A stretch of DNA of 20,000 nt from positions 47,019 to 67,018 of IMG/VR virus record IMGVR_UViG_3300000156_000110; one strand, 5' to 3'. Under the pieces are notes generated by a model. The model saw only the letters and a program-made list of their open reading frames with translations, had not been told where the DNA came from and searched no databases. Shown one piece after another: positions 1,905-15,355 of the stretch. Made by a program: the position numbers and the translations under genes. The stretch comes from an uncultured virus (IMG/VR IMGVR_UViG_3300000156_000110) (taxonomy: Duplodnaviria; Heunggongvirae; Uroviricota; Caudoviricetes). Position 1 is the first letter of the stretch, and every line of letters begins with the position of its first letter.

Positions 1905-1910
1905 GTGAGC

Positions 1911-1944
1911 GGGACGGTCCCCACTCGTCAGCGACGACCGTCCC
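1911..1944 (-). terminator. GC-rich hairpin, probable terminator or 3' stem of small RNA
   Basis: GGGACGGTC/GACCGTCCC perfect 9-bp stem, extended by G-U-containing pairs on the minus strand; no U tract. Confidence 0.55.
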
Positions 1945-2036
1945 TACCAGCCGCCCCGCTTGACTAGTCATCCGTTCCGAGCACTCGGTCGGATCGGTAG
2001 CCCCTGGGAAGTCGCGACCCCACGGTGACGGCTGGT
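1911..2036 (-). ncRNA. putative structured small RNA (~126 nt) expressed from P2
   Basis: Predicted +1 (2036) coincides with the first base of a 10-bp closing stem (2036-2027 with 1955-1946); internal nested stems; G-U pairs favour the minus strand; no credible ORF. Confidence 0.55.
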
Positions 2037-4050: not shown

Positions 4051-4335
4051 TCACGACGCGGCCGCCCGTTGACGCTGGACGCGATCCCACAGCGTCGGAG
4101 GCGGATGCTCGATGCGATGTTGGCGATCTCTGATCCGTCGCCGCTCCTTCGCACTCAGTCCGCCCCACACCCCGTGCTCGCGTTCTCCCGCCACCCGGCA
4201 TTCGTTCGCCACCGGGCATTCGGCGCAGAGTTGACGCACCGCTGGACGAACGTTCTCGCCGTCTTGGGGGAAGAACAAGTCCGAGTCCATTCCCCGACAC
4301 GCGGCCTCCAACCTCCACTTTTCGGCATCTTTCAT
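4051..4335 (-). CDS. whiB: WhiB-family Fe-S transcriptional regulator (94 aa)
   Basis: W..AAC, LFFP, CAECPVANEC, GVWGGLS..ERR; ATG at 4335 in ATGA overlap. Confidence 0.93.
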   Translation of the reverse strand: MKDAEKWRLEAACRGMDSDLFFPQDGENVRPAVRQLCAECPVANECRVAGEREHGVWGGLSAKERRRIRDRQHRIEHPPPTLWDRVQRQRAAAS

Positions 4336-5006
4336 GACTTTCGCCTCCTGTCCTTTCCGGTGATCCGCATGACCAACGCGCCCCCCACCAGGCGCGAGTA
4401 GGTGTGTTCTCCGACCATTGCCTCGAAGGACTTGTCCGTAGGGTCGAGGTTCGTGGTGACGATCGTTGGGAGCATCTCCAACCACCGTCGGTTGACGATC
4501 AGGCCGAGGGCCACGGTCGTCGCTTCGCTCGATTTCTCGGAACCGAGGTCGTCGATGACGAGCCGACCCACGGTCAGCATCCGGTGCATCTCCGAGCGCG
4601 AGTTGTCGTTCGGTTGCAACTTCCAGAACATCTCACCAGCGGGCTCGAAAGCCACGTCGAACCCGCGCCCGAAGGCAGCTCGGACAGCGGCGACAGCGCA
4701 ATGCGACTTCCCCGGGCCGACCGGGCCGAACAGGACCAGGTTCGGCGGCCGCTCGGCCACGGCCCACTCCGTGAGTTCGTTCAGTTGTCCGGTGTCGAGG
4801 TCGAGAGTGTCGAGAGATGCATCCCAAAACCGCATCGGGATCTCGGCTTGCCACCGCATGAGCGCCATGGCCGCCCGTCGATCGTTGATCTCCTGCACCG
4901 CCTCGCCGTCATCGTCGTTCAGCGGGGCCAGGCTCGGGCCCGGAGTGGCCGCCAGGCGCTCCCGAAGCTCCTGAAGCGAGTCCGCCACCATCTTCGGGTC
5001 GCTCAC
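4332..5006 (-). CDS. DnaC/IstB-like AAA+ ATPase, putative helicase loader
   Basis: Walker A GPVGPGKS, Walker B LVIDDLGSE, PTIVTTN, SRL, GKDRR; directly after the initiator gene. Confidence 0.88.
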   Translation of the reverse strand: MSDPKMVADSLQELRERLAATPGPSLAPLNDDDGEAVQEINDRRAAMALMRWQAEIPMRFWDASLDTLDLDTGQLNELTEWAVAERPPNLVLFGPVGPGKSHCAVAAVRAAFGRGFDVAFEPAGEMFWKLQPNDNSRSEMHRMLTVGRLVIDDLGSEKSSEATTVALGLIVNRRWLEMLPTIVTTNLDPTDKSFEAMVGEHTYSRLVGGALVMRITGKDRRRKS

Positions 5007-5779
5007 AGCCTGAACACCGCCCCCGGCAGATCCCGGTCCACCTTGTTCTCGGGACGATCGTTGGCGGGCAGGACAGCCCGGCCCTTACCTGCGCCGAGGG
5101 CGAAGTCGAACGAGTTGCGACTGAACACGGTCATGGTCCGCAGAGCCGCGGTGACGGCTTCGGGGGAGTGCCCTGCGGCCAGAGCCTCGCCGATGCGAGC
5201 CCGGAGGGCGAGGAACCCGCAGACGGGTTTGGGGTTCCGCCGGTCCCATTCGGAGCGTGCGATCTCGTTGGAGAGCTTCCTAGAGGTTTCTAGGTCTAAT
5301 TCATAGGTCACTAAGGAAGAAGGAACTGACGCTTGCGCGTCACTTCCAACTGACGTTGGCGCGTCACTTCGGAACTGACGCTTGCGCGTCACTTCGGGAT
5401 CGGGTTCGTGAAGGATTCGGGCCCTCTGGATGGCCTCGAAGACCGGCCTCCATGCCGTGGTCGGGCCGATATCGCGCTTGAACCGGCGGCACTCGACCAA
5501 CTCGGCTTTGGTGAGCACGGACTTGGCCCGCCGGACCTGTCGCAGCGACAACCGCGTCTCACCCCACCACTCGTCATCGGAGCGCAGGAGCCACCGCTGA
5601 CCGGCCCGCTCGAACTTGCACCGCGGGGTTCCGTCCTTGGACGGTTGGTGCCACCACAAGACCTGTGAGAGCACCAGGGCGACGGGGTAGTCGCATTCGG
5701 TCACATCGAGCACCCAAGTCTCGATGAAGACCCCGCGGCTGTCATAGTGGGCCGACTGGCTCCCGTCTCCGATGGTCAC
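5003..5779 (-). CDS. putative replication initiator (winged-HTH, lambda O-like organisation)
   Basis: HTH-like WWGETRLSLRQVRRAKSVL; internal DNA direct repeats; coupled to the DnaC-like gene. Confidence 0.75.
   Translation of the reverse strand: MTIGDGSQSAHYDSRGVFIETWVLDVTECDYPVALVLSQVLWWHQPSKDGTPRCKFERAGQRWLLRSDDEWWGETRLSLRQVRRAKSVLTKAELVECRRFKRDIGPTTAWRPVFEAIQRARILHEPDPEVTRKRQFRSDAPTSVGSDAQASVPSSLVTYELDLETSRKLSNEIARSEWDRRNPKPVCGFLALRARIGEALAAGHSPEAVTAALRTMTVFSRNSFDFALGAGKGRAVLPANDRPENKVDRDLPGAVFRL
5324..5395. repeat. three 23-bp iterons AACTGACG(CTT/TTG)GCGCGTCACTTC, putative replication origin
   Basis: Copies at 5324-5346, 5348-5370, 5373-5395; internal dyad TGACG...CGTCA; adjacent AT-richer tract 5281-5320. 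Confidence 0.8.
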
Positions 5780-6324
5780 AGTTCGACCGTTCGGATAGTT
5801 CGGACCTGAACGATGGCGTTGTCACTGAACCAGATGGGCGTGTTGGCCCCGACAAACCGGCGCATATTGGGATCGCGAATCTCCCAACCCGGTGCGATCA
5901 GGTCGAGATACCGGGAGTTGAGAGCGTCGCCGTACGAGACCGTGACCAATTGGTCACGCGTAAGTGGGTTGTGCCAGGCGTTGATGCACCCACCATCTTC
6001 CCTCACGAAGTGGACGGGAACCGTCCGCCGCGGCAGCTTCAAGTGCTCAATCAGAACCGATTGCGGCCATTCAGGGTCGACCAACACGGGGATTGTTCCG
6101 GGCAGAGGAGGCCCTGACATGGCATATTTACCCGGACTCAGTGGTACGCCCGACTCCACGAACCAGCGCTCGATGACGGTCCCGGCAATCTTCATCGCCC
6201 AATGCGAGTCCGACGCCCACAACTCGCCATCCTTGTCCGCCACGTACAGGTAGGCGTCGATGGCCGCGAACAGGACATCGAACCCGGGGTCCACCGGAAC
6301 CTCGCCGGTTTTGCTATCGTCCAT
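5776..6324 (-). CDS. hypothetical protein (182 aa)
   Basis: ATG with GAAAGG RBS; stop overlaps the initiator GTG; no motif recognised. Confidence 0.7.
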   Translation of the reverse strand: MDDSKTGEVPVDPGFDVLFAAIDAYLYVADKDGELWASDSHWAMKIAGTVIERWFVESGVPLSPGKYAMSGPPLPGTIPVLVDPEWPQSVLIEHLKLPRRTVPVHFVREDGGCINAWHNPLTRDQLVTVSYGDALNSRYLDLIAPGWEIRDPNMRRFVGANTPIWFSDNAIVQVRTIRTVEL

Positions 6325-6335
6325 CTGACGCCTTT

Positions 6336-6458
6336 CGTTCTCTGTGTCTTCGGATACGTGGAACGCCTGGGGTGTTGCTCCGGTCCTCTATCGCCGGGGG
6401 GCCGGAACCTCTCACGAGGTTGGAGCAGGAAGGGAGTCCTTTCGGGGGCTCCCTTCCT
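6336..6458 (+). ncRNA. putative antisense structured RNA (or ssDNA structure) with two UUCG-capped hairpins
   Basis: Stems 6336-6365 (cUUCGg), 6382-6403, 6406-6421, closing 6376-6381/6422-6427, and 6427-6458 (14 bp, UUCG); wobble pairs are G-U on the + strand. Confidence 0.55.
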
Positions 6459-6490
6459 CGCGTGCGGTGCCTTGTCTGAGCGGGCGAAGG

Positions 6491-7150
6491 TTACGTCTGG
6501 ATTCCGCGCTTCGCCAGTGCCTTTTCGGCTGCCTCCACGAAGTCGATGATCTTGCGGGCGGAGTTGAGTAGCTCGGGTCGGGTGGTTTCCTCCCCCCACT
6601 TCTTGCCCGTCCCGACGCTGTCGAGCAGGCCCAGGGCGCGCCCCAAAAGACGGTCGGCGGCGGAGGGGTCGGGGCGCTTGGCGATGCCCGGAGCTTGGGT
6701 GGTCGCAGCCGCAGAAATGCGCGGTGGTCCAACTCTCTGACCTGCACCTTTACCAGATTCACCGCGCACTTTTGGAGCCGCGGCGCGAGGGCTCGCGGCC
6801 TGCTTGGCCGCGGCTTCGGTGACCGCCTGAGCCGCCGGTGTGGTCTTGTTGGCCTTGGCCCGAGCTTCGATGGCCAACGCCTCCCGCGCCTTCGCGAGCG
6901 CGGAGTAGGCCGACGACCGACTCGTCCATCCCCATCGGTTGAGGCAGTAGTCGGCGAAGGACTTCTGTCGGGCTCGGTAGAGCTTGCGGTCATGGATCTC
7001 CACGAAGGCACCGAACACGGCCTTGCCGAACTTGTCGGTAGCCCGGTCGATTTGGTTTTCAAGCTCCCGCAACCGGTCGGCCTCTTCGCGACTCATCGTC
7101 TCGATCGGTACCTCGGTTTTGGCGTCAGGGAAGGCCAGTTCTTGGGTCAT
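6491..7150 (-). CDS. putative DNA-binding phage protein (EIxDxxLYR...FxDYCxxRWG motif) with Ala/Lys-rich linker, 219 aa
   Basis: FVEIHDRKLYRARQKSFADYCLNRWGWTSRSSAY resembles a common HTH-like phage domain; ATG at 7150 in ATGA overlap, GAGGAG RBS. Confidence 0.7.
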   Translation of the reverse strand: MTQELAFPDAKTEVPIETMSREEADRLRELENQIDRATDKFGKAVFGAFVEIHDRKLYRARQKSFADYCLNRWGWTSRSSAYSALAKAREALAIEARAKANKTTPAAQAVTEAAAKQAASPRAAAPKVRGESGKGAGQRVGPPRISAAATTQAPGIAKRPDPSAADRLLGRALGLLDSVGTGKKWGEETTRPELLNSARKIIDFVEAAEKALAKRGIQT

Positions 7151-9753
7151 TTTCTCCTCGTCTTGAGTTGGCGGGCTGCCATTTTGGCGTCGATGGCTTG
7201 GGACACATCGCCCTTGCTCCAAGTCGGGTCGACCTGGATGCCGAGCTTGCGGGCGAAGGCGAGTTGCTTATCAGAGGGCGGGGTCTTGCGCCATGGGGCG
7301 TCGCGAGCGGTCAACTGCGGGGCCTGCCGACGCACGTAGTCCTCCGCCGCTCCCTGCGCCCACTCCAAGTCAGCCGCCCTCGCCAGCTCCACGTTGCGAC
7401 CCTTGACCCCGTACCCGGCAGGCATCGAGGTCGCGACCCACTCGTCACCGGACTTCTCCAACAGCACCATCCGCTGCGGCAGCATCACGGCATACCCGGC
7501 GTCGACGTGGACCCAGGCAATCGGAGCCTGCTTGAGCTTGCCAAGCAGCTCGATCTCCTTGGCCTGTAGAACGCCCATCGCGACCTGCTTGGCTCGCATG
7601 GCGACCAACCCGTCGCTCACCTTCGCCGTACCGTTCTCGAAACCCTTGGGGTCGATGCCGAGCAGGGTGGGGACAGTGCAGAGCTTATGTTCGGACGCCA
7701 CCCCCACACAGTCGAGGACGAGACAGTCGGTCTTGTCCACGTGCTTGCGAGTACCTCGTCCAATAACTTGGGCGTAGAGAGCCCGGGACTGAGTTGGGCG
7801 GGCCATCACGATGCAGTCGACCCGCGGGTTGTCGTAGCCCTCCGTGAGCACCCCGCAGTTCGTCACCACGTCGAGGTCACCGCGAGCGAAGGCGGCCAGG
7901 GTCCGGCGTCGGTCGGCGATGTCCTGAGCACCCCACACCACGCCGGCGCGGATACCCGAAGCACCGAAGGCGTCGGCGGTGGCTTGGGCGAGGTCGACAG
8001 TCGGGCAGAACACGATCGTGCGCCGCCCGATGGCGTGCTCCATCCATGAGGCGACGACGTGGCCGGGAGCATCGGCGGCTTCGAGCGCGGCCCCAAGAGC
8101 ACCGTCCTGGTAGTCGCCCTTGGACTTCGCGACCGTCCCGAGGTCGACGGCCAACTTGACCTGGATGCCTCGGAGGTCGCAGAGATAGCCCGCCTCGATC
8201 CCCCACCCGAGGTCGTAGTTGAACACGATCTCGTCGAAGACGGAGTCGAGTCCGGTCTTGTCGCCTCGGTCGGGCGTTGCGGTCACCCCGAGTAGGAGAG
8301 GTTGTGGCGCGCCATCCACCGGCCCCATCGGGCCGCACCCGAGGGCATTGAGGACGGTCCGGTAGGACGCCGCGCTCGCGTGGTGGGCCTCGTCGACCAC
8401 CACCAAGGAGAACGGGTTGCGCTGGTGACGATGGATGAGGTTCCGCAGGCGTCGAGGGACCGAGACGGTTTGGATCGAGGCGACCACGACATCGGACCAT
8501 CCCTCGTTGCGCTCCGCCTTCACGATCCCGATGTCTCGATCCGGGCAGACCCACGACACCTTCTCGGCCGCCTGGGAGATCAGTTCGTCGCGGTGGGCGA
8601 GGATGAGCGTTGGCCCAGGAGTCTCGGCCGCCATCGTCCCGAACAGGATTGTATTGTGCGTGACCACATGGCCCACGGTGACGAAGAGTCCGTCCGCGGC
8701 GTCGACCTTGATGCAGACGGTCTCAGTCGGGTCGATCGGCTCAATGGCAGAGATACGGCGAACCGGCCCCGTCCGAGGTTTGGACGACCACTTGGCCGCC
8801 TTACGCTCCAAGAGGAACGGATTCATCCCGAACCGCAGGATAACGTTCGCACCCCAAGGGTCCGCATAGATGGTTGCGATGCCGCCTAAAGACTGAACCA
8901 GTTCAACCATATCCTGGGCGAGTCCCATTGAAGAGGTCGAGAACTCAACGAAGCTCTCCATATGTCCGTCGCAATCCATGAGTCCACGGAGAAGGTCGAG
9001 TCGTTGTTCGATGGATGACTCCAAGAAGTTGCGCGGGATGCGCTTCGTTGTCAGGTTCAAGTCCAGATCAACGACTCCGGCCCAGAAGCGATGATCCGGC
9101 GTGTCTCGGGCGAAATCCGCCGGACTCGGCACCTGACAACGGCCACCCCGTCTCCCTTGTAGGAATGTGACGAGGGGAACCAAAGCAAGATGCTTCGGGA
9201 GGCGCTGTTCCAGTTCGACGACCATCCCGCTCCCGCCCGAACCATCACTCAGCAGGACACCGAGCACGTATGGGTCGATCGACAATGGGGTGTCCGGTCT
9301 CTCGACTGGCTGCGTCACCGGTATCCGCCACGACACATAAGTGTCGGCAAGTTCCTCGGTGCTGAGCGTCCTCCACGAGCGTCCGAGCTTGAGCATGGCG
9401 TCAGTGGTGACGGTCCAGAGATGATCGGCGTCGACCACGATCGAAACGCCATCTTCGGTGGTCACCCGGTATGCGGGTTGGAGTCCACGATGGAACACGC
9501 CCGTCACGGCCACGGGATGACCGTCGGCGCCGACGACCTGATCGCCTACGACGAGATCCTCCACCGGCCGCCAACCGTTCGCGGTCAGAACCGGAGTCCC
9601 GAGAGCGAGGCCCTTCCCGGCTCCCGTGAACGCAACCCCGAGTTGACGCTTGACTCCCCGGGCCTGAGCCTCGGCGATGGCATCGAGCGCCTGGCGTTGA
9701 TAGGGCCGAAGCTCGATCTTGGGAGGAGCGCCGCCGAGTGCGAGGGTGCTCAT
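7147..9753 (-). CDS. SF2 DEAH-box helicase (Res/Irc3-like) precursor containing an intein (868 aa; ~548 aa spliced)
   Basis: LRPYQ, TGAGK|T, ILAHRDELISQ, VVDEAHH, GVTATPDR, VLTEGYD, QVIGRGTR; ATG at 9753 in ATGA overlap. Confidence 0.93.
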   Translation of the reverse strand: MSTLALGGAPPKIELRPYQRQALDAIAEAQARGVKRQLGVAFTGAGKGLALGTPVLTANGWRPVEDLVVGDQVVGADGHPVAVTGVFHRGLQPAYRVTTEDGVSIVVDADHLWTVTTDAMLKLGRSWRTLSTEELADTYVSWRIPVTQPVERPDTPLSIDPYVLGVLLSDGSGGSGMVVELEQRLPKHLALVPLVTFLQGRRGGRCQVPSPADFARDTPDHRFWAGVVDLDLNLTTKRIPRNFLESSIEQRLDLLRGLMDCDGHMESFVEFSTSSMGLAQDMVELVQSLGGIATIYADPWGANVILRFGMNPFLLERKAAKWSSKPRTGPVRRISAIEPIDPTETVCIKVDAADGLFVTVGHVVTHNTILFGTMAAETPGPTLILAHRDELISQAAEKVSWVCPDRDIGIVKAERNEGWSDVVVASIQTVSVPRRLRNLIHRHQRNPFSLVVVDEAHHASAASYRTVLNALGCGPMGPVDGAPQPLLLGVTATPDRGDKTGLDSVFDEIVFNYDLGWGIEAGYLCDLRGIQVKLAVDLGTVAKSKGDYQDGALGAALEAADAPGHVVASWMEHAIGRRTIVFCPTVDLAQATADAFGASGIRAGVVWGAQDIADRRRTLAAFARGDLDVVTNCGVLTEGYDNPRVDCIVMARPTQSRALYAQVIGRGTRKHVDKTDCLVLDCVGVASEHKLCTVPTLLGIDPKGFENGTAKVSDGLVAMRAKQVAMGVLQAKEIELLGKLKQAPIAWVHVDAGYAVMLPQRMVLLEKSGDEWVATSMPAGYGVKGRNVELARAADLEWAQGAAEDYVRRQAPQLTARDAPWRKTPPSDKQLAFARKLGIQVDPTWSKGDVSQAIDAKMAARQLKTRRK
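8653..9612 (-). mobile_element. intein (320 aa) with LAGLIDADG homing-endonuclease motifs, inserted in Walker A; class-3 signature
   Basis: Starts GLALGTPVLTANGW, block B DADHLW, blocks C/E LGVLLSDG and LRGLMDCDG, block F TVCIKV, ends VVTHN/T. Confidence 0.92.
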
Positions 9754-10022
9754 GCCAGACGGAGCAGCCACACCGACACGGCGATAGTGGCCGCGACGAG
9801 CAACACGATGAGGCATAGTCGGACGGTGATCTGGATGGCGAGGCGGGTGGCGCTTAGCGCCCGTTCCGAACGAGTCGGAGGCTTCGGCTCCGATGGGACT
9901 CCGAAGAGGGCTTCACACAGTCCCCCGATGATGCCGCCAGTGGGTGCTGCGGAGGGGGAGCCCGAAGGCTTCCCCCTCACGGTCGCACTCCATGAGTCCT
10001 CGGAGAATCTGGGCGGACTCAC
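9750..10022 (-). CDS. hypothetical protein with C-terminal TM helix (90 aa)
   Basis: Coupled by 4-nt overlaps on both sides; hydrophobic C-terminus. Confidence 0.6.
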   Translation of the reverse strand: MSPPRFSEDSWSATVRGKPSGSPSAAPTGGIIGGLCEALFGVPSEPKPPTRSERALSATRLAIQITVRLCLIVLLVAATIAVSVWLLRLA

Positions 10023-11011
10023 GCTGCGACGACCTCTCGGACCAGCTTCACCGCCCGAGCCTTGAGGGGCTCAGGACGAAGGAGCTGACGACCGAACAGC
10101 GTCGCATCGCTGCGGGCCTTGCGCACGTGGTCGAGGTACTCGCCCGACGCCTGCACCAGACCGTAGGCCGTGTCGCGGATGCCATCGCAGGTGGGTGAGG
10201 CGAGGATGGCCCGGATGGCGGCCCTTGCCTCTTCCACGTTGGCGGCGACACGGTCGGAGATGAGAGCCTCGACCGGCGAGGGGATGAACTCGGCGATGAA
10301 GCGCCGGGTCTGGACCTCGTCGACGTGCAGCAGGCTCAGTTGAGTGGCGAGTTCCCTCCACTCCTGGGCCTCGGCCCTTGTGGCGTTGATGACCCGTCGA
10401 GCGTCCTCCACCCGGTCACGCCAGTTCTTCGTGTGACGGAAGGTGAACTGCAAGCCGGACCTCTGGCCCTCGGCTTCGGCGGCGGCGAAGGTGTTGGCGC
10501 AGACCACTCGGACCGTGGTCCGGTTGACCTTGCATGCCGTCGACCCGTCGAAGCTGTTGAGCACCGAGGCGTAGGGGTAGGTGGCGCTTGGGTCGCCCGG
10601 GATCTGGAAGGGCTCGTCGACCCGAAGGACCGCGGCGAGCTTCTTGCCGCCGTCGAGCACGACCGTCGTCTCGTACTTGACGTTGTCCTCCTGCACCACG
10701 GCTTCGATGATCGGGCCCATGTCGGCCACCGTGATCGTGCCGTAGGTGGACTTCGGGACGCTCAGGATTGAGCCGGTGTCGCTGCGGGCGAGCCCCTTCT
10801 GGCCGGGGATCTCGGCGTAGGTCGCGGAGGGAATGCCGAAGGGATCAACCTCGACCTCGCGGGTGAAGACCGGAACCTCGACCACATCCCATTCCAAGCC
10901 TGCCAGCTTCCGGGCCTCATCCCAGGAGCCGGGGTAGTCGTCGATCACGACGCCCAACCGATGCCACGCTGGCTTTCGGACGAAGAAGCCACTCTCGAAC
11001 TCTGCGCTCAT
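10019..11011 (-). CDS. DUF932-family phage/plasmid protein (330 aa)
   Basis: PAWHRLG, AGLEWDV, LNSFDGS, TTVRVVCANT, FRHT motifs; ATG at 11011 with GGAGG RBS. Confidence 0.88.
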   Translation of the reverse strand: MSAEFESGFFVRKPAWHRLGVVIDDYPGSWDEARKLAGLEWDVVEVPVFTREVEVDPFGIPSATYAEIPGQKGLARSDTGSILSVPKSTYGTITVADMGPIIEAVVQEDNVKYETTVVLDGGKKLAAVLRVDEPFQIPGDPSATYPYASVLNSFDGSTACKVNRTTVRVVCANTFAAAEAEGQRSGLQFTFRHTKNWRDRVEDARRVINATRAEAQEWRELATQLSLLHVDEVQTRRFIAEFIPSPVEALISDRVAANVEEARAAIRAILASPTCDGIRDTAYGLVQASGEYLDHVRKARSDATLFGRQLLRPEPLKARAVKLVREVVAA

Positions 11012-13143: not shown

Positions 13144-13178
13144 TGTCAGCCTCCCTCACATACCCCCGGTTGGATCGG

Positions 13179-13199
13179 GGAGCGGGTCAGTCCCGCTCC
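13179..13199 (-). terminator. 8-bp hairpin after the tail operon, possible terminator
   Basis: GGAGCGGG-N5-CCCGCTCC about 30 nt downstream of the tail-fibre stop. Confidence 0.4.
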
Positions 13200-13202
13200 A
13201 CC

Positions 13203-13229
13203 AGTATACCGCACCGGGGTGCGCTACAA
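13203..13229 (-). promoter_or_regulatory. promoter P4: -10 TATACT with operator AGCGCACCCCGGTGCGGT; TTGTAG at short 15-bp spacing
   Basis: Minus strand TTGTAG CGCACCCCGGTGCGG TATACT at the tail/early-gene junction. Confidence 0.7.
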
Positions 13230-13231
13230 GG

Positions 13232-15355
13232 TCAGACGCCGCCCGACGTGAGGCCCGGGACCATCCCGACAGTGCCATTCACGGTGTCGGCCACGAGGGT
13301 GACCCGGATCAGTGCGACCTCGCTGGTCAGTAGCGCCAACGCCAAGTCCTCGCGCTGTTCGGTGACCGAGAACGGTTCGCGGGGTTGTCCCGCCCCTGGC
13401 GACTTCAAGCCCAAGTCGGGATGGATCGTGTCGTTGACTGAGTAGGCCCAATCGGGGGGAAGGATCATGCGCCGAGCAGATGCGTGGAAACTTGCCCCCC
13501 CGGATGGAGGAATGGTCGCGGCCGCTACCGCCGTCAGTTCATCGGGCATCATCGCCCAGGCATTGTTGACCGGCTGGGCGTCGGTTGGTGCGGTTCCGAG
13601 CGTGTCCACGATCACCGGATCGCCGTCGGCTTCGATGAGTGGGAGCACAACCGGGAACCCCCCAACCTGCGGCGAGTAGGTCACCGTGATCTTTCCCTCG
13701 CCCGAATTGGCTCCCTGGTTGTTGGTGACAGTGCCGAACTCACCAACCGAATAGGCGGTCGACCCTCCACCGCCACCGGCGGCCCCGAACCCGATCCGCA
13801 CCCCGCCGCCACCGCCGCCGCGGTATCCACCACCGCCCGCGCCGGCGCACCAACTCTCCCCGCCCGTCCCGGCAGTGAACTGCCGCCCGTTGCCGCCCTG
13901 CAATGGTGACCCATCCCGCCCGACCAAATCTCCCGCGCCACCGACTCCCGAATAGGTCTGACCACCACCCTGACCCCCCTCGGCATCGGCGGCTGCACCG
14001 CCATCCCCGGCGATCGGTCCGCCTCCCAACCCTCCGACACCGGGAACGTTTCCTCGCCCAGCCCCACCACCGCCACCAACGATGGCGATGATGTTCGAGG
14101 CACTCGTCCCGCCCCGATAGACCGCGCTGCCAGCCCCCCCGCCGCCGCCGAGAGCCAACGGCGATCCGTGCCCGGCGTCGAGTTCGCAGTCGCCGCCCGG
14201 AGCAGGACCGTCACCGCCCGAGCCCGCACTGCCCATTGAACCCGCCCAGAAGTGCAAGACCTCGCCGGGAGTGACCGGCATGTCTGCCTCGAACACTCCA
14301 CCAGGACCGCCCGCCACCAATGCTGACTCCCCCGCCGCACCCTCGACGGTGATGTGAACGGAGAATACGTCCGTCGGAACCGTCCATGCCTCCTGAACAC
14401 CGGGGAAATATTCGTCGGTCTTGGAGAATGTCTGCTCGCTGACCCTGAAATATTGAAAGCTCGGCCCGAATGAAGGGTCGACGTAGAACAATACAAACCG
14501 CCCGTCGCTCAGGGCCACTATCCGACCGACCGCATCCACGTCAACCGGCTCGGACAGATATGGCCCATCGGGAAGCAGGACCGTGCCCTGGTTCGGGCCG
14601 ATGAGACGAACCGTGTTGCGGGTGAAGGCGCCGTTGACATCGTGGTGTCGGCTGAGCATCACCGACCAGGCGTCGGCCAACCGATACCGGCCCTCGCTGT
14701 CGACACCGTTGGCAACTCGGCCCGGTTGTCCGGCCTGAACGCTCACCGGCACGTCGATGTAGGGATCGTCCTCATCAGGCACCATGTAGTCGACCGTGAA
14801 GACCGTGAGGGCCGGGAGCGCCCCGCCTTCTTCGGGAAAATGGACGAGCCGGAAAGTGGCGGCCCCCGATTTGTTGATAGCTGGGAGGGTGGAAAACCGA
14901 TATCCGGGGAAGTAGTAGCCGACCTCGGGCTGTGTCCTGACGACCTTCCCATTGAGTGAGCCGATGCCGGGATGGACCTCGGCCTCGATGTAGACGGGAT
15001 CGGGTCGGGAATGGTCGATCCGAATGATCCCCACTGATGCGAGGAACACCGGTGGACTCGATGAGGCATAGGGGTTGAAGACGAACAGGAACCGGCTCGC
15101 ATCGACCTGGGTAATCCCGGCCCAAATCTCCCCAAGTGACGAGATCGGGTTCGTCGGCCCCCCGTCGTGGTAGGCGAACTCGGGCGTCACGACCGGTGCG
15201 GCAGTCACATGCATCAGGGTGACTCGACGCTCATAGCTGCCTTGGTCAGTCGACGTAAGGACTATGGCGTAGTCCTTGTCGACCCGCAGGAGGATGGGCG
15301 GATAGAAGGAGGTCGGGTAGCTCACCTTGTTGATGAGGGTGATGCCTTGGCTCAC
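13232..15355 (-). CDS. glycine-rich minor tail / receptor-binding protein (707 aa)
   Basis: GTG at 15355 overlaps upstream stop (GTGA); WTVP..V...VEGAAG then GGGGGAGS/GGGGGYRGGGGG polyglycine domain; last gene of the tail module. Confidence 0.75.
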   Translation of the reverse strand: MSQGITLINKVSYPTSFYPPILLRVDKDYAIVLTSTDQGSYERRVTLMHVTAAPVVTPEFAYHDGGPTNPISSLGEIWAGITQVDASRFLFVFNPYASSSPPVFLASVGIIRIDHSRPDPVYIEAEVHPGIGSLNGKVVRTQPEVGYYFPGYRFSTLPAINKSGAATFRLVHFPEEGGALPALTVFTVDYMVPDEDDPYIDVPVSVQAGQPGRVANGVDSEGRYRLADAWSVMLSRHHDVNGAFTRNTVRLIGPNQGTVLLPDGPYLSEPVDVDAVGRIVALSDGRFVLFYVDPSFGPSFQYFRVSEQTFSKTDEYFPGVQEAWTVPTDVFSVHITVEGAAGESALVAGGPGGVFEADMPVTPGEVLHFWAGSMGSAGSGGDGPAPGGDCELDAGHGSPLALGGGGGAGSAVYRGGTSASNIIAIVGGGGGAGRGNVPGVGGLGGGPIAGDGGAAADAEGGQGGGQTYSGVGGAGDLVGRDGSPLQGGNGRQFTAGTGGESWCAGAGGGGYRGGGGGGVRIGFGAAGGGGGSTAYSVGEFGTVTNNQGANSGEGKITVTYSPQVGGFPVVLPLIEADGDPVIVDTLGTAPTDAQPVNNAWAMMPDELTAVAAATIPPSGGASFHASARRMILPPDWAYSVNDTIHPDLGLKSPGAGQPREPFSVTEQREDLALALLTSEVALIRVTLVADTVNGTVGMVPGLTSGGV

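Follow-up and report, generated by a model that had tools for sequence, protein, structure and literature searches.

A structured element was identified on the plus strand of the replication region of an uncultured Caudoviricetes virus (IMG/VR record IMGVR_UViG_3300000156_000110). The stretch analysed, hereafter the window, comprises 20,000 nucleotides (nt). It is the last 20 kb of the 67,018-bp record, which has direct terminal repeats and 65% G+C. The element occupies 6327-6458(+) in a gap between two minus-strand genes. Both its structure and the bias toward the plus strand are genuine, and they are exceptional within this genome. It begins 6 nt after an extended -10-like motif and is complementary to the leader of the replication genes that follow. 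Our preferred reading, held tentatively and at slightly less than even confidence, is that 6327 to about 6458 would be transcribed from its own promoter. The product, roughly 132 nt long, would be an antisense RNA to the replication-gene leader, of the counter-transcribed RNA (ctRNA) or oop kind. An initial annotation, made from the sequence alone, had offered a ctRNA, a trans-acting non-coding RNA or a single-stranded DNA (ssDNA) signal as explanations of the gap. The comparison of 12 G·U pairs with no A·C apposition, the UUCG loops and the RNA fold favour a plus-strand RNA among these, and the ssDNA fold is ill defined. Positions are those of the window unless a genome position is stated.

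Structure of the plus-strand element

The gap runs from the stop codon of the open reading frame (ORF) 6491-7150(-) to the point where ORF 5776-6324(-) starts. It is the sole long gap in the run of replication genes. The other junctions are 4-nt start/stop overlaps, namely ATGA at 7150-7147 (helicase and 219-amino-acid (aa) protein), GTGA at 5779-5776 (182-aa and DnaD-like proteins) and GTGA at 5006-5003 (DnaD-like and DnaC-like proteins). This confirmed the initial description of a 166-nt interruption, at 6325-6490, in a tightly coupled minus-strand operon, as well as the coupling of the 182-aa stop codon to the start of the initiator gene.

The core of the element, 132 nt long, consists of three domains that abut without linkers: hairpin H1, a three-way junction and the terminal hairpin H4 (Table 1). 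Its fold holds 53 pairs (28 G-C, 13 A-U and 12 G·U), with one mismatch and two bulges. The minimum free energy (MFE) structure of the whole 166 nt contains 15 G·U pairs. Both counts exceed the roughly eight wobble positions first noticed, which was an undercount. The plus-strand fold has no A·C apposition, and all of the G·U/A·C asymmetry therefore favours this strand.

The core reached -76.7 kcal/mol on the plus strand (z -5.53, 0/300 shuffles) versus -48.3 kcal/mol on the minus strand (z -2.25, 5/300). For the whole gap, the values were -87.0 kcal/mol (z -4.46, 0/200) and -53.8 kcal/mol (z -0.72, 49/200), respectively. The two-strand folding comparison proposed at the outset thus came out clearly on the plus side. 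The plus strand is 61% G+T, and the shuffle means of -68.8 versus -50.7 kcal/mol correspond to 18 of the 33 kcal/mol that separate the strands. The shuffles keep composition, so the z-scores already allow for this bias. The ensemble of the core was also well defined on the plus strand, with a mean pair probability of 0.965 and an MFE frequency of 0.25, versus an MFE frequency of 0.018 on the minus strand.

The domains differed in their strand preference. H1 folded with -22.6 kcal/mol on the plus strand (z -4.08, 0/300) and -7.9 kcal/mol on the minus strand (z -0.35, 97/300). The hairpin at 6336-6365 with a C(UUCG)G loop, as initially described, is the upper part of H1, and the 5' arm of H1 includes CCUUUC, the complement of the ribosome-binding site discussed below. 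The junction domain showed z -2.41 on the plus strand (6/300) and z -1.41 on the minus strand (26/300). Its two hairpins were reproduced at the positions first given: 6382-6403 has the hexaloop AUCGCC (6390-6395) and 3 G·U pairs, and 6406-6421 has the sequence AACCUC-UCAC-GAGGUU with the loop UCAC. The enclosing stem, initially drawn as six pairs, was folded as GCUCC/GGAGC. H4, also reproduced as a 14-bp UUCG hairpin, folds on either strand, with -25.4 kcal/mol (z -3.77) on the plus and -19.8 kcal/mol (z -3.56) on the minus strand. The asymmetry thus sits mostly in H1 and the arm 6382-6403, and H4 and the small UCAC hairpin are about equal on both strands. Beyond H4, the segment 6459-6520 was no better than shuffles (z +1.68 on the plus and +0.27 on the minus strand).

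The element also stood out in the genome. When both strands were scanned in 150-nt frames with a 25-nt step and a regression on composition, its plus-strand frame ranked 5th of all frames and strands, and it was the best locus structured on the plus strand only. Genes were mapped by crude ORF calling based on G+C content at third codon positions, which classes 18% of the genome as non-coding. The gaps of at least 70 nt in this map of the 67-kb genome gave 98 non-coding tiles. Among them, only the tile of the element had z(+) <= -4, and every other tile at or below -4 reached this value on the sense strand. The genome has 813 TTCG sites and six UUCG-loop hairpins with a stem of at least 5 pairs. 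Two of the six are in the element, both on the plus strand.

A promoter-like site 6 nt before the first paired base

The extended -10 that the initial annotation had suspected at 6312-6320(+) is present as TGCTATCGT, and it ends 6 nt before 6327. With the usual 6-nt spacer, the predicted start is therefore the first paired base of the fold. TGNTANNNT has two sites in 134 kb of strand, the second of which lies in intergenic DNA ahead of a gene of the tail region. Actinobacterial -10 elements follow TANNNT. The portal protein of the phage has its best matches in Arthrobacter phages (44-45% identity), so the host is likely actinobacterial and a -10 element of the TANNNT type would suit it.

The TA dinucleotide is depleted in the genome (observed/expected 0.45), and TANNNT is rarer still, with 108 sites seen versus about 316 expected from the TA count. 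This avoidance is in keeping with selection that removes stray -10 elements. Of the 108 hexamers, 29 fall in the non-coding 18% of the genome. When the next 130 nt were folded for every TANNNT site, the site at 6312-6320 ranked first (z -5.81). The third-ranked site (z -4.64) is the one that would drive a second putative RNA, 2036-1911(-), described below. Opposite the -10 A at 6316 lies the wobble T of a GAT codon. In 12 genes, GAT and GAC occur 79 and 206 times, respectively, and the choice of GAT where GAC is 2.6 times commoner weakly favours a kept -10 A.

A scan of 5500-7500 for terminators called only 6293-6309 and 7034-7047. H4 was not called and has no T-run on either side, and the reading of the element as a bidirectional intrinsic terminator, which the initial annotation had named among its refutations, was rejected. 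No TANNNT is found on the minus strand between H4 and the start of the 182-aa gene, and H4 is therefore unlikely to be an efficient sense terminator. The called site 6293-6309(+) is a hairpin, ACCGG..CCGGT, followed by TTT and immediately precedes the candidate -10. The conserved sense promoters of the phage likewise have an inverted repeat next to the -10. On the minus strand, the TAACCT at 6488-6493 would possibly form a convergent pair with 6312-6320.

Proposed antisense RNA and its target

Counted from the ATG at 6324, a transcript of 6327-6458(+) would be exactly complementary to leader positions -3 to -134. The stretch includes the GAAAGG ribosome-binding site, placed as the initial annotation had it, at 6336-6331(-) and 6 nt before the start codon. 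GAAAGG is unpaired in the minus-strand MFE structure. The median cost of opening a 7-mer was 4.3 kcal/mol in the mRNA versus 9.3 kcal/mol in the antisense RNA. The best computed nucleation with the mRNA is at the hexaloop (7-mer 6390-6396), with a total of -8.3 kcal/mol and opening costs of 1.5 and 0.5 kcal/mol.

From the observed structure, motif and spacing, complementarity and gene coupling, we infer a mechanism in which the production of the RNA, its end point and its effects are all conditional. Transcription by the host RNA polymerase would begin at about 6327, driven by the extended -10, and run opposite to the replication operon. The nascent RNA would fold into H1, the three-way junction and the terminal H4. 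The mRNA leader would stay open because the G·U pairs of the antisense RNA become A·C mismatches in the mRNA, and a stable folded antisense RNA would thus face an accessible target. Pairing would begin most easily at the hexaloop AUCGCC and spread over the ribosome-binding site. Translation of the 182-aa gene would be lowered and, via the GTGA overlaps, also that of the two loader genes, DnaD-like and DnaC-like. A double-strand RNase could in addition cleave the duplex. Polymerases on their way to the candidate origin in the DnaD-like gene (see below) could further be impeded by the convergent transcription, comparable to what is proposed for lambda pO.

Several results weigh against this proposal. 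A -35 element is absent, and a sigma-70 consensus scan of 5500-7500 returned 0 promoters. The conserved promoter family of the phage lies wholly on the minus strand, and the site at 6312-6320 does not look like its members. The promoter statistics are post hoc, and the second-ranked TANNNT site is inside a coding region, so the rank test is not fully specific. No U-tract follows H4 on its 3' side, where CGCGUGCGGUGCC comes without a U-run. Within the fold, the anti-ribosome-binding-site sequence is buried in a stem that costs 8-9.5 kcal/mol to open, and masking therefore needs the duplex to spread about 55 nt. UUCG loops are poor kissing loops, and two loops of the element are of this kind. 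Part of the gap may moreover be a sense-strand leader module or its relic, which would explain H4 and the small hairpin, and does not explain H1.

Comparative searches likewise brought the proposal no support. The Rfam check suggested initially gave 0 families at gathering score in the window (Rfam 15). A distant search of the phage collection found no DNA relatives, the exact 30-mer of H4 was not found in viral contigs, and a degenerate H1 pattern was found in neither genome contigs nor viral contigs. Both flanking proteins are singletons. The only relative retrieved was a distant one, a metagenome locus (L002) with a DnaD-like protein of 43% identity. Another gene stands upstream there, and the gap of 197 nt is unstructured (z -0.70 and -1.10). 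The claim for an antisense RNA is drawn from one sequence, and its present value is that of a well-specified hypothesis.

Further searches were similarly sparse. At E <= 10, Rfam matches in 6200-6600 were limited to CrfA (minus strand, E 1.6) and a trypanosomatid snoRNA, and no tRNA or tmRNA was found. The 182-aa and 219-aa proteins had no tblastn match among phages, and neither they nor the DnaC-like protein gave loci in viral contigs. The DnaD-like protein had only 4 tblastn matches among phages, all in Stenotrophomonas phages with 27% coverage. Its alignment found nothing in viral or genome contigs and the one metagenome locus named above. A genome scan for paralogues with a single-sequence covariance model gave weak matches, the best being 9946-10086(-) with 22.6 bits, and 1909-2026(-) scored 15.7 bits. 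No antisense RNA of an actinobacteriophage surfaced in a literature search, which cannot say whether one is in print.

Replication genes and a candidate origin

Almost all genes of the 67-kb genome are on the minus strand. In the direction of transcription, the order is helicase with intein, 219-aa orphan, gap, 182-aa orphan, DnaD-like protein and DnaC-like loader (Table 1). The 182-aa and 219-aa proteins each match only themselves among 5.8 billion clustered proteins. The 182-aa protein had no Pfam and no PHROG match. Its Atlas model is weakly like the sliding-clamp domains of the DNA polymerase III beta subunit (TM 0.48-0.51, below the bar of the tool), and a clamp-like replication protein is possible as a lead only. 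For the 219-aa protein, Atlas features were near DUF3102-like clusters (9/30 matches, score 0.92), likewise a lead only. The plus-strand ORF 6546-6740 was rejected as a shadow ORF; judged from the coordinates, it shares third-codon positions with the minus frame of the 219-aa gene.

Table 1. Features of the gap and its neighbourhood (window positions)
Feature	Position	Strand	Remarks
H1, 20-bp hairpin	6327-6376	+	7 G·U; cUUCGg loop (6349-6352); pair probabilities 0.78-1.0
Three-way junction domain	6377-6426	+	Stem GCUCC/GGAGC (6377-6381/6422-6426) around two hairpins
H4, 14-bp terminal hairpin	6427-6458	+	UUCG loop; candidate 3' end/terminator; no U-tract after it
Tail between H4 and stop codon of upstream gene	6459-6490	+	Unstructured
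Extended -10-like promoter TGCTATCGT	6312-6320	+	Hexamer TATCGT 6315-6320; predicted start about 6327 past 6-nt spacer
Ribosome-binding site GAAAGG of 182-aa gene	6336-6331	-	Proposed target; 6 nt before ATG 6324-6322
TCCAACC then GAGAGG, leader-like	6409-6424	-	As in other operon leaders of the phage; no start codon after it
TAACCT, TANNNT hexamer over TAA stop	6488-6493	-	Possible sense promoter; 6 TAACCT sites in genome
Helicase with intein	7147-9816	-	Hint and LAGLIDADG_3
219-aa orphan, upstream of gap	6491-7150	-	Start overlaps helicase stop (ATGA)
182-aa orphan, first gene past gap	5776-6324	-	Stop overlaps DnaD-like start (GTGA)
DnaD-like helicase loader/initiator	5003-5779	-	phrog_6493, E 9e-8; 1514 homologues at E <= 0.001
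DnaC-like helicase loader	4332-5006	-	PF01695, E 6.5e-14; phrog_50, E 1.6e-29

The DnaD-like gene contains three tandem 25-nt iterons at 5322-5395, each with an internal palindrome TGACGC..GCGTCA. Adjoining them is the most AT-rich stretch of 60 nt in the whole genome, which starts at 5263 and has a GC content of 0.43. Iterons and AT-rich spot together (5263-5395) fall in the coding sequence of the linker that joins the initiator's two conserved domains, and this segment is a likely candidate origin of replication. Its distance from the structured element is about 950 nt. A fork moving from 5263-5395 toward the gap would make the plus strand the lagging-strand template. The gap itself was rejected as the origin, as it has no iterons and 6150-6700 shows only two-copy repeats of 9-10 nt.

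Comparison with known antisense systems

The ctRNAs of plasmids include CopA of R1, RNAIII of pIP501, RNAI of pT181 and RNAII of pMV158, and ctRNA families are represented in Rfam. They are small, stem-loop-rich RNAs opposite the leader of a replication gene and complementary to the ribosome-binding region, and the element would share these properties. Its proposed first target is translationally coupled to the initiator gene, as tap is to repA in R1, and its transcription would be convergent with the sense transcription. The computed accessible recognition loop (hexaloop 6390-6395) is a further likeness. In contrast to the plasmid RNAs, the element lacks an Rfam match and a U-tract terminator, has two UUCG loops and the anti-ribosome-binding-site sequence in a stem, and is carried by a 67-kb phage. 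The phage has terminal repeats, and no integrase or partition gene was found in its 67-kb genome, so it is not a copy-controlled plasmid. Plasmid ctRNAs pair two mirrored stem-loops, whereas here the G·U asymmetry leaves the target unfolded.

The oop RNA of phage lambda is 77 nt long. For lambda, interference of pO with transcription from pR toward the origin is proposed, and the oop RNA itself is said to matter little for replication (PMC3985674). With the lambda arrangement, the element would share a short transcript, predicted here, that starts at the upstream border of the replication genes and runs counter to the main early transcription. In both, the origin, a candidate here, lies some 1 kb further downstream within the initiator gene. 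The order of a DNA-binding-protein gene, an antisense RNA, an initiator with origin and a helicase loader would also be the same. Unlike the element, oop extends over the 3' end of cII, the gene upstream of it, and cII is also the gene on which it acts. The core of the element ends at 6458, 33 nt short of the upstream gene (stop codon 6491-6493), and covers the downstream ribosome-binding site instead. It would overlap the upstream gene only if transcription read past H4. There is no sequence relation between the two loci, and the initiator O and the DnaD-like protein belong to different families.

The element is in no described RNA family and is a candidate addition to the ctRNA/oop-like antisense RNAs. 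If the RNA is real, antisense control of replication in the plasmid style would extend to a lytic-looking, high-G+C phage lineage without cultured relatives. It would also be a clear case of G·U asymmetry that keeps an antisense RNA folded and its target open.

Alternative readings of the gap

Foremost among the alternatives, though unlikely, is the absence of any plus-strand function. The gap would then hold a leader or regulatory module of the sense strand, of the kind customary in this phage, composed of a hairpin, TCCAACC and the Shine-Dalgarno-like GAGAGG and perhaps representing a decayed internal promoter at a mosaic joint. The plus-strand fold would be a by-product of palindromes together with a C+A-rich, deliberately open mRNA leader. 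The leader-like motif at 6409-6424(-) was not in the initial annotation. TCCAACC behaves as a sense-strand leader motif, with 7 of its 14 minus-strand copies in the non-coding 18% of the genome versus 0 of 6 on the plus strand. A purine run resembling a Shine-Dalgarno sequence was read after it at 5 of the 6 other non-coding minus-strand sites. The order of hairpin, 3-4 nt and TCCAACC recurs at 13174-13223, and ACCGCAC, half of the conserved promoter element of the phage, is at 6468-6462. H4 and the small hairpin, which has a GUGA loop on the minus strand, fold on both strands, and the G+T content of the plus strand alone gives over half of the strand difference, as stated above.

This explanation leaves much of the fold unaccounted for. 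Even against composition-keeping shuffles, the plus strand stays at z -4.5 to -5.5, and the minus strand as a whole is unstructured (z -0.72). Nothing on the sense strand corresponds to H1, with its 7 G·U pairs, or to the arm 6382-6403. Decaying palindromes would not be expected to yield 12 G·U pairs and no A·C apposition. Neither a -10 nor a start codon accompanies the leader-like motif.

The conserved promoter-like family that this comparison draws on consists of CGCACCC, 1-2 nt and GGTGCG, a palindrome placed directly before TANNNT. Six clear copies and about three variants were found, none on the plus strand. The minus-strand members are at 2063-2043, 1896-1875, 11078-11057, 13223-13203 and 12085-12067 (a variant) in the window and at genome positions 40033, 23585, 39313 and 22674. 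They are usually followed by the TCCAACC leader and a Shine-Dalgarno sequence.

Somewhat less probable still is a plus-strand RNA that is made and does not mask the ribosome-binding site in cis. Convergent transcription itself could be what matters, in line with the proposal for lambda that pO-pR interference, and not oop RNA, tunes replication. Alternatively, the product could be a stand-alone RNA, perhaps related to the 2036-1911 RNA as a sibling, with a protein as its partner or a role in trans. All evidence for a plus-strand RNA applies equally to such roles. The burial of the anti-ribosome-binding-site sequence fits them, and the almost fully helical fold with its stable tetraloops is scaffold-like. 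No trans targets stood out, however, when the 63 other translation starts were compared with 40 random plus-strand segments, a result that weakens the overall case as well. The duplex energies of the 63 start regions had a mean of -50.0 versus -47.9 +/- 3.6 for random segments and a minimum of -68.1 versus -63.8 +/- 5.0. GGUUGGAG, the complement of the TCCAACC leaders, is moreover paired in the fold.

The locus 2036-1911(-) is probably a separate small RNA gene. It is a 126-nt sense element with -72 kcal/mol, z -5.24 and an MFE frequency of 0.31 (z -1.87 on the plus strand). It starts 6 nt past the -10 of a conserved promoter, and its long final hairpin ends 13 nt before the next promoter. The likeness that the initial annotation had seen between it and the gap element stood for layout and promoter spacing and failed for homology. 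Both loci have a -10, 6 nt and then the first paired base, a junction followed by a long terminal hairpin without U-tract, a length of 126-132 nt and a z of about -5. The 2036-1911 RNA differs in that it forms a transcription unit of its own on the sense strand, under the conserved CGCACCC...TANNNT promoter. The covariance-model similarity between the two is weak (15.7 bits, E ~0.05) and tells against their being siblings. That both form a small class of promoter-driven, almost fully helical stand-alone RNAs without U-tract is improbable. Under the reading as such a class, GGUUGGAG could address the TCCAACC leader, which six or more operons of the phage share. The RNAs could instead act as a decoy or scaffold for a protein of host or phage. 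If true, the class would represent a type of regulatory RNA not yet described in phages.

A signal in ssDNA is comparably improbable. In this case, priming or primosome-assembly hairpins of the plus strand would be exposed on the lagging-strand template and bound by a primase or helicase-loading factor. Single-strand initiation (ssi) and primosome-assembly sites of plasmids and ssDNA phages are strand-specific arrays of hairpins, 100-150 nt in extent, found close to an origin where that strand is the lagging-strand template. The element resembles them in its position within the replication gene cluster, about 950 nt from the candidate origin, and in its strand, which would fit the template. 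With DNA parameters, the plus strand beat the shuffles (z -2.79, 0/200) and the minus strand did not (z -1.03, 31/200). The DNA fold is nevertheless weak and ill defined, with -34.9 kcal/mol, an MFE frequency of 0.0006 and a centroid that keeps 3 hairpins. The element folds far better as RNA, and 12 of its 53 pairs would be G·T mismatches in DNA. UUCG loops confer extra stability in RNA only. The promoter-like motif at the exact distance of a start site is left unexplained, and no primase gene was recognised among the window genes in Pfam and PHROG scans.

Other loci of the genome

With the likely origin, the conserved family of sense promoters and leaders and the TANNNT avoidance, a control layout of the replication module has been mapped, which makes the transcription and replication programme of the phage testable. 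Further structured non-coding loci on the genome minus strand are 44294-44493 (z -5.49), 32217-32405 (z -4.38) and 13385-13485 (z -4.19). Genome 21576-21825 is structured on both strands and is located between two small genes. Genome 33511-33650(-), structured with z -4.02 (plus strand -2.28) 6 nt after a TANNNT, lies inside a gene for an 881-aa protein bearing LAGLIDADG.

Insertions of the intein type were present in three large genes, the helicase gene 7147-9816 and genome 18150-20492 and 32406-35051, each with LAGLIDADG_3. RNA-repair-like domains occur in two proteins of the phage. The 821-aa product of genome 13968-16433 has an XkdF protease domain beside Zeta_toxin/AAA_33 kinase-like and 2'-5' RNA ligase-superfamily domains, and the 234-aa product of genome 41162-41866 matches the RNA ligase RLIG1.

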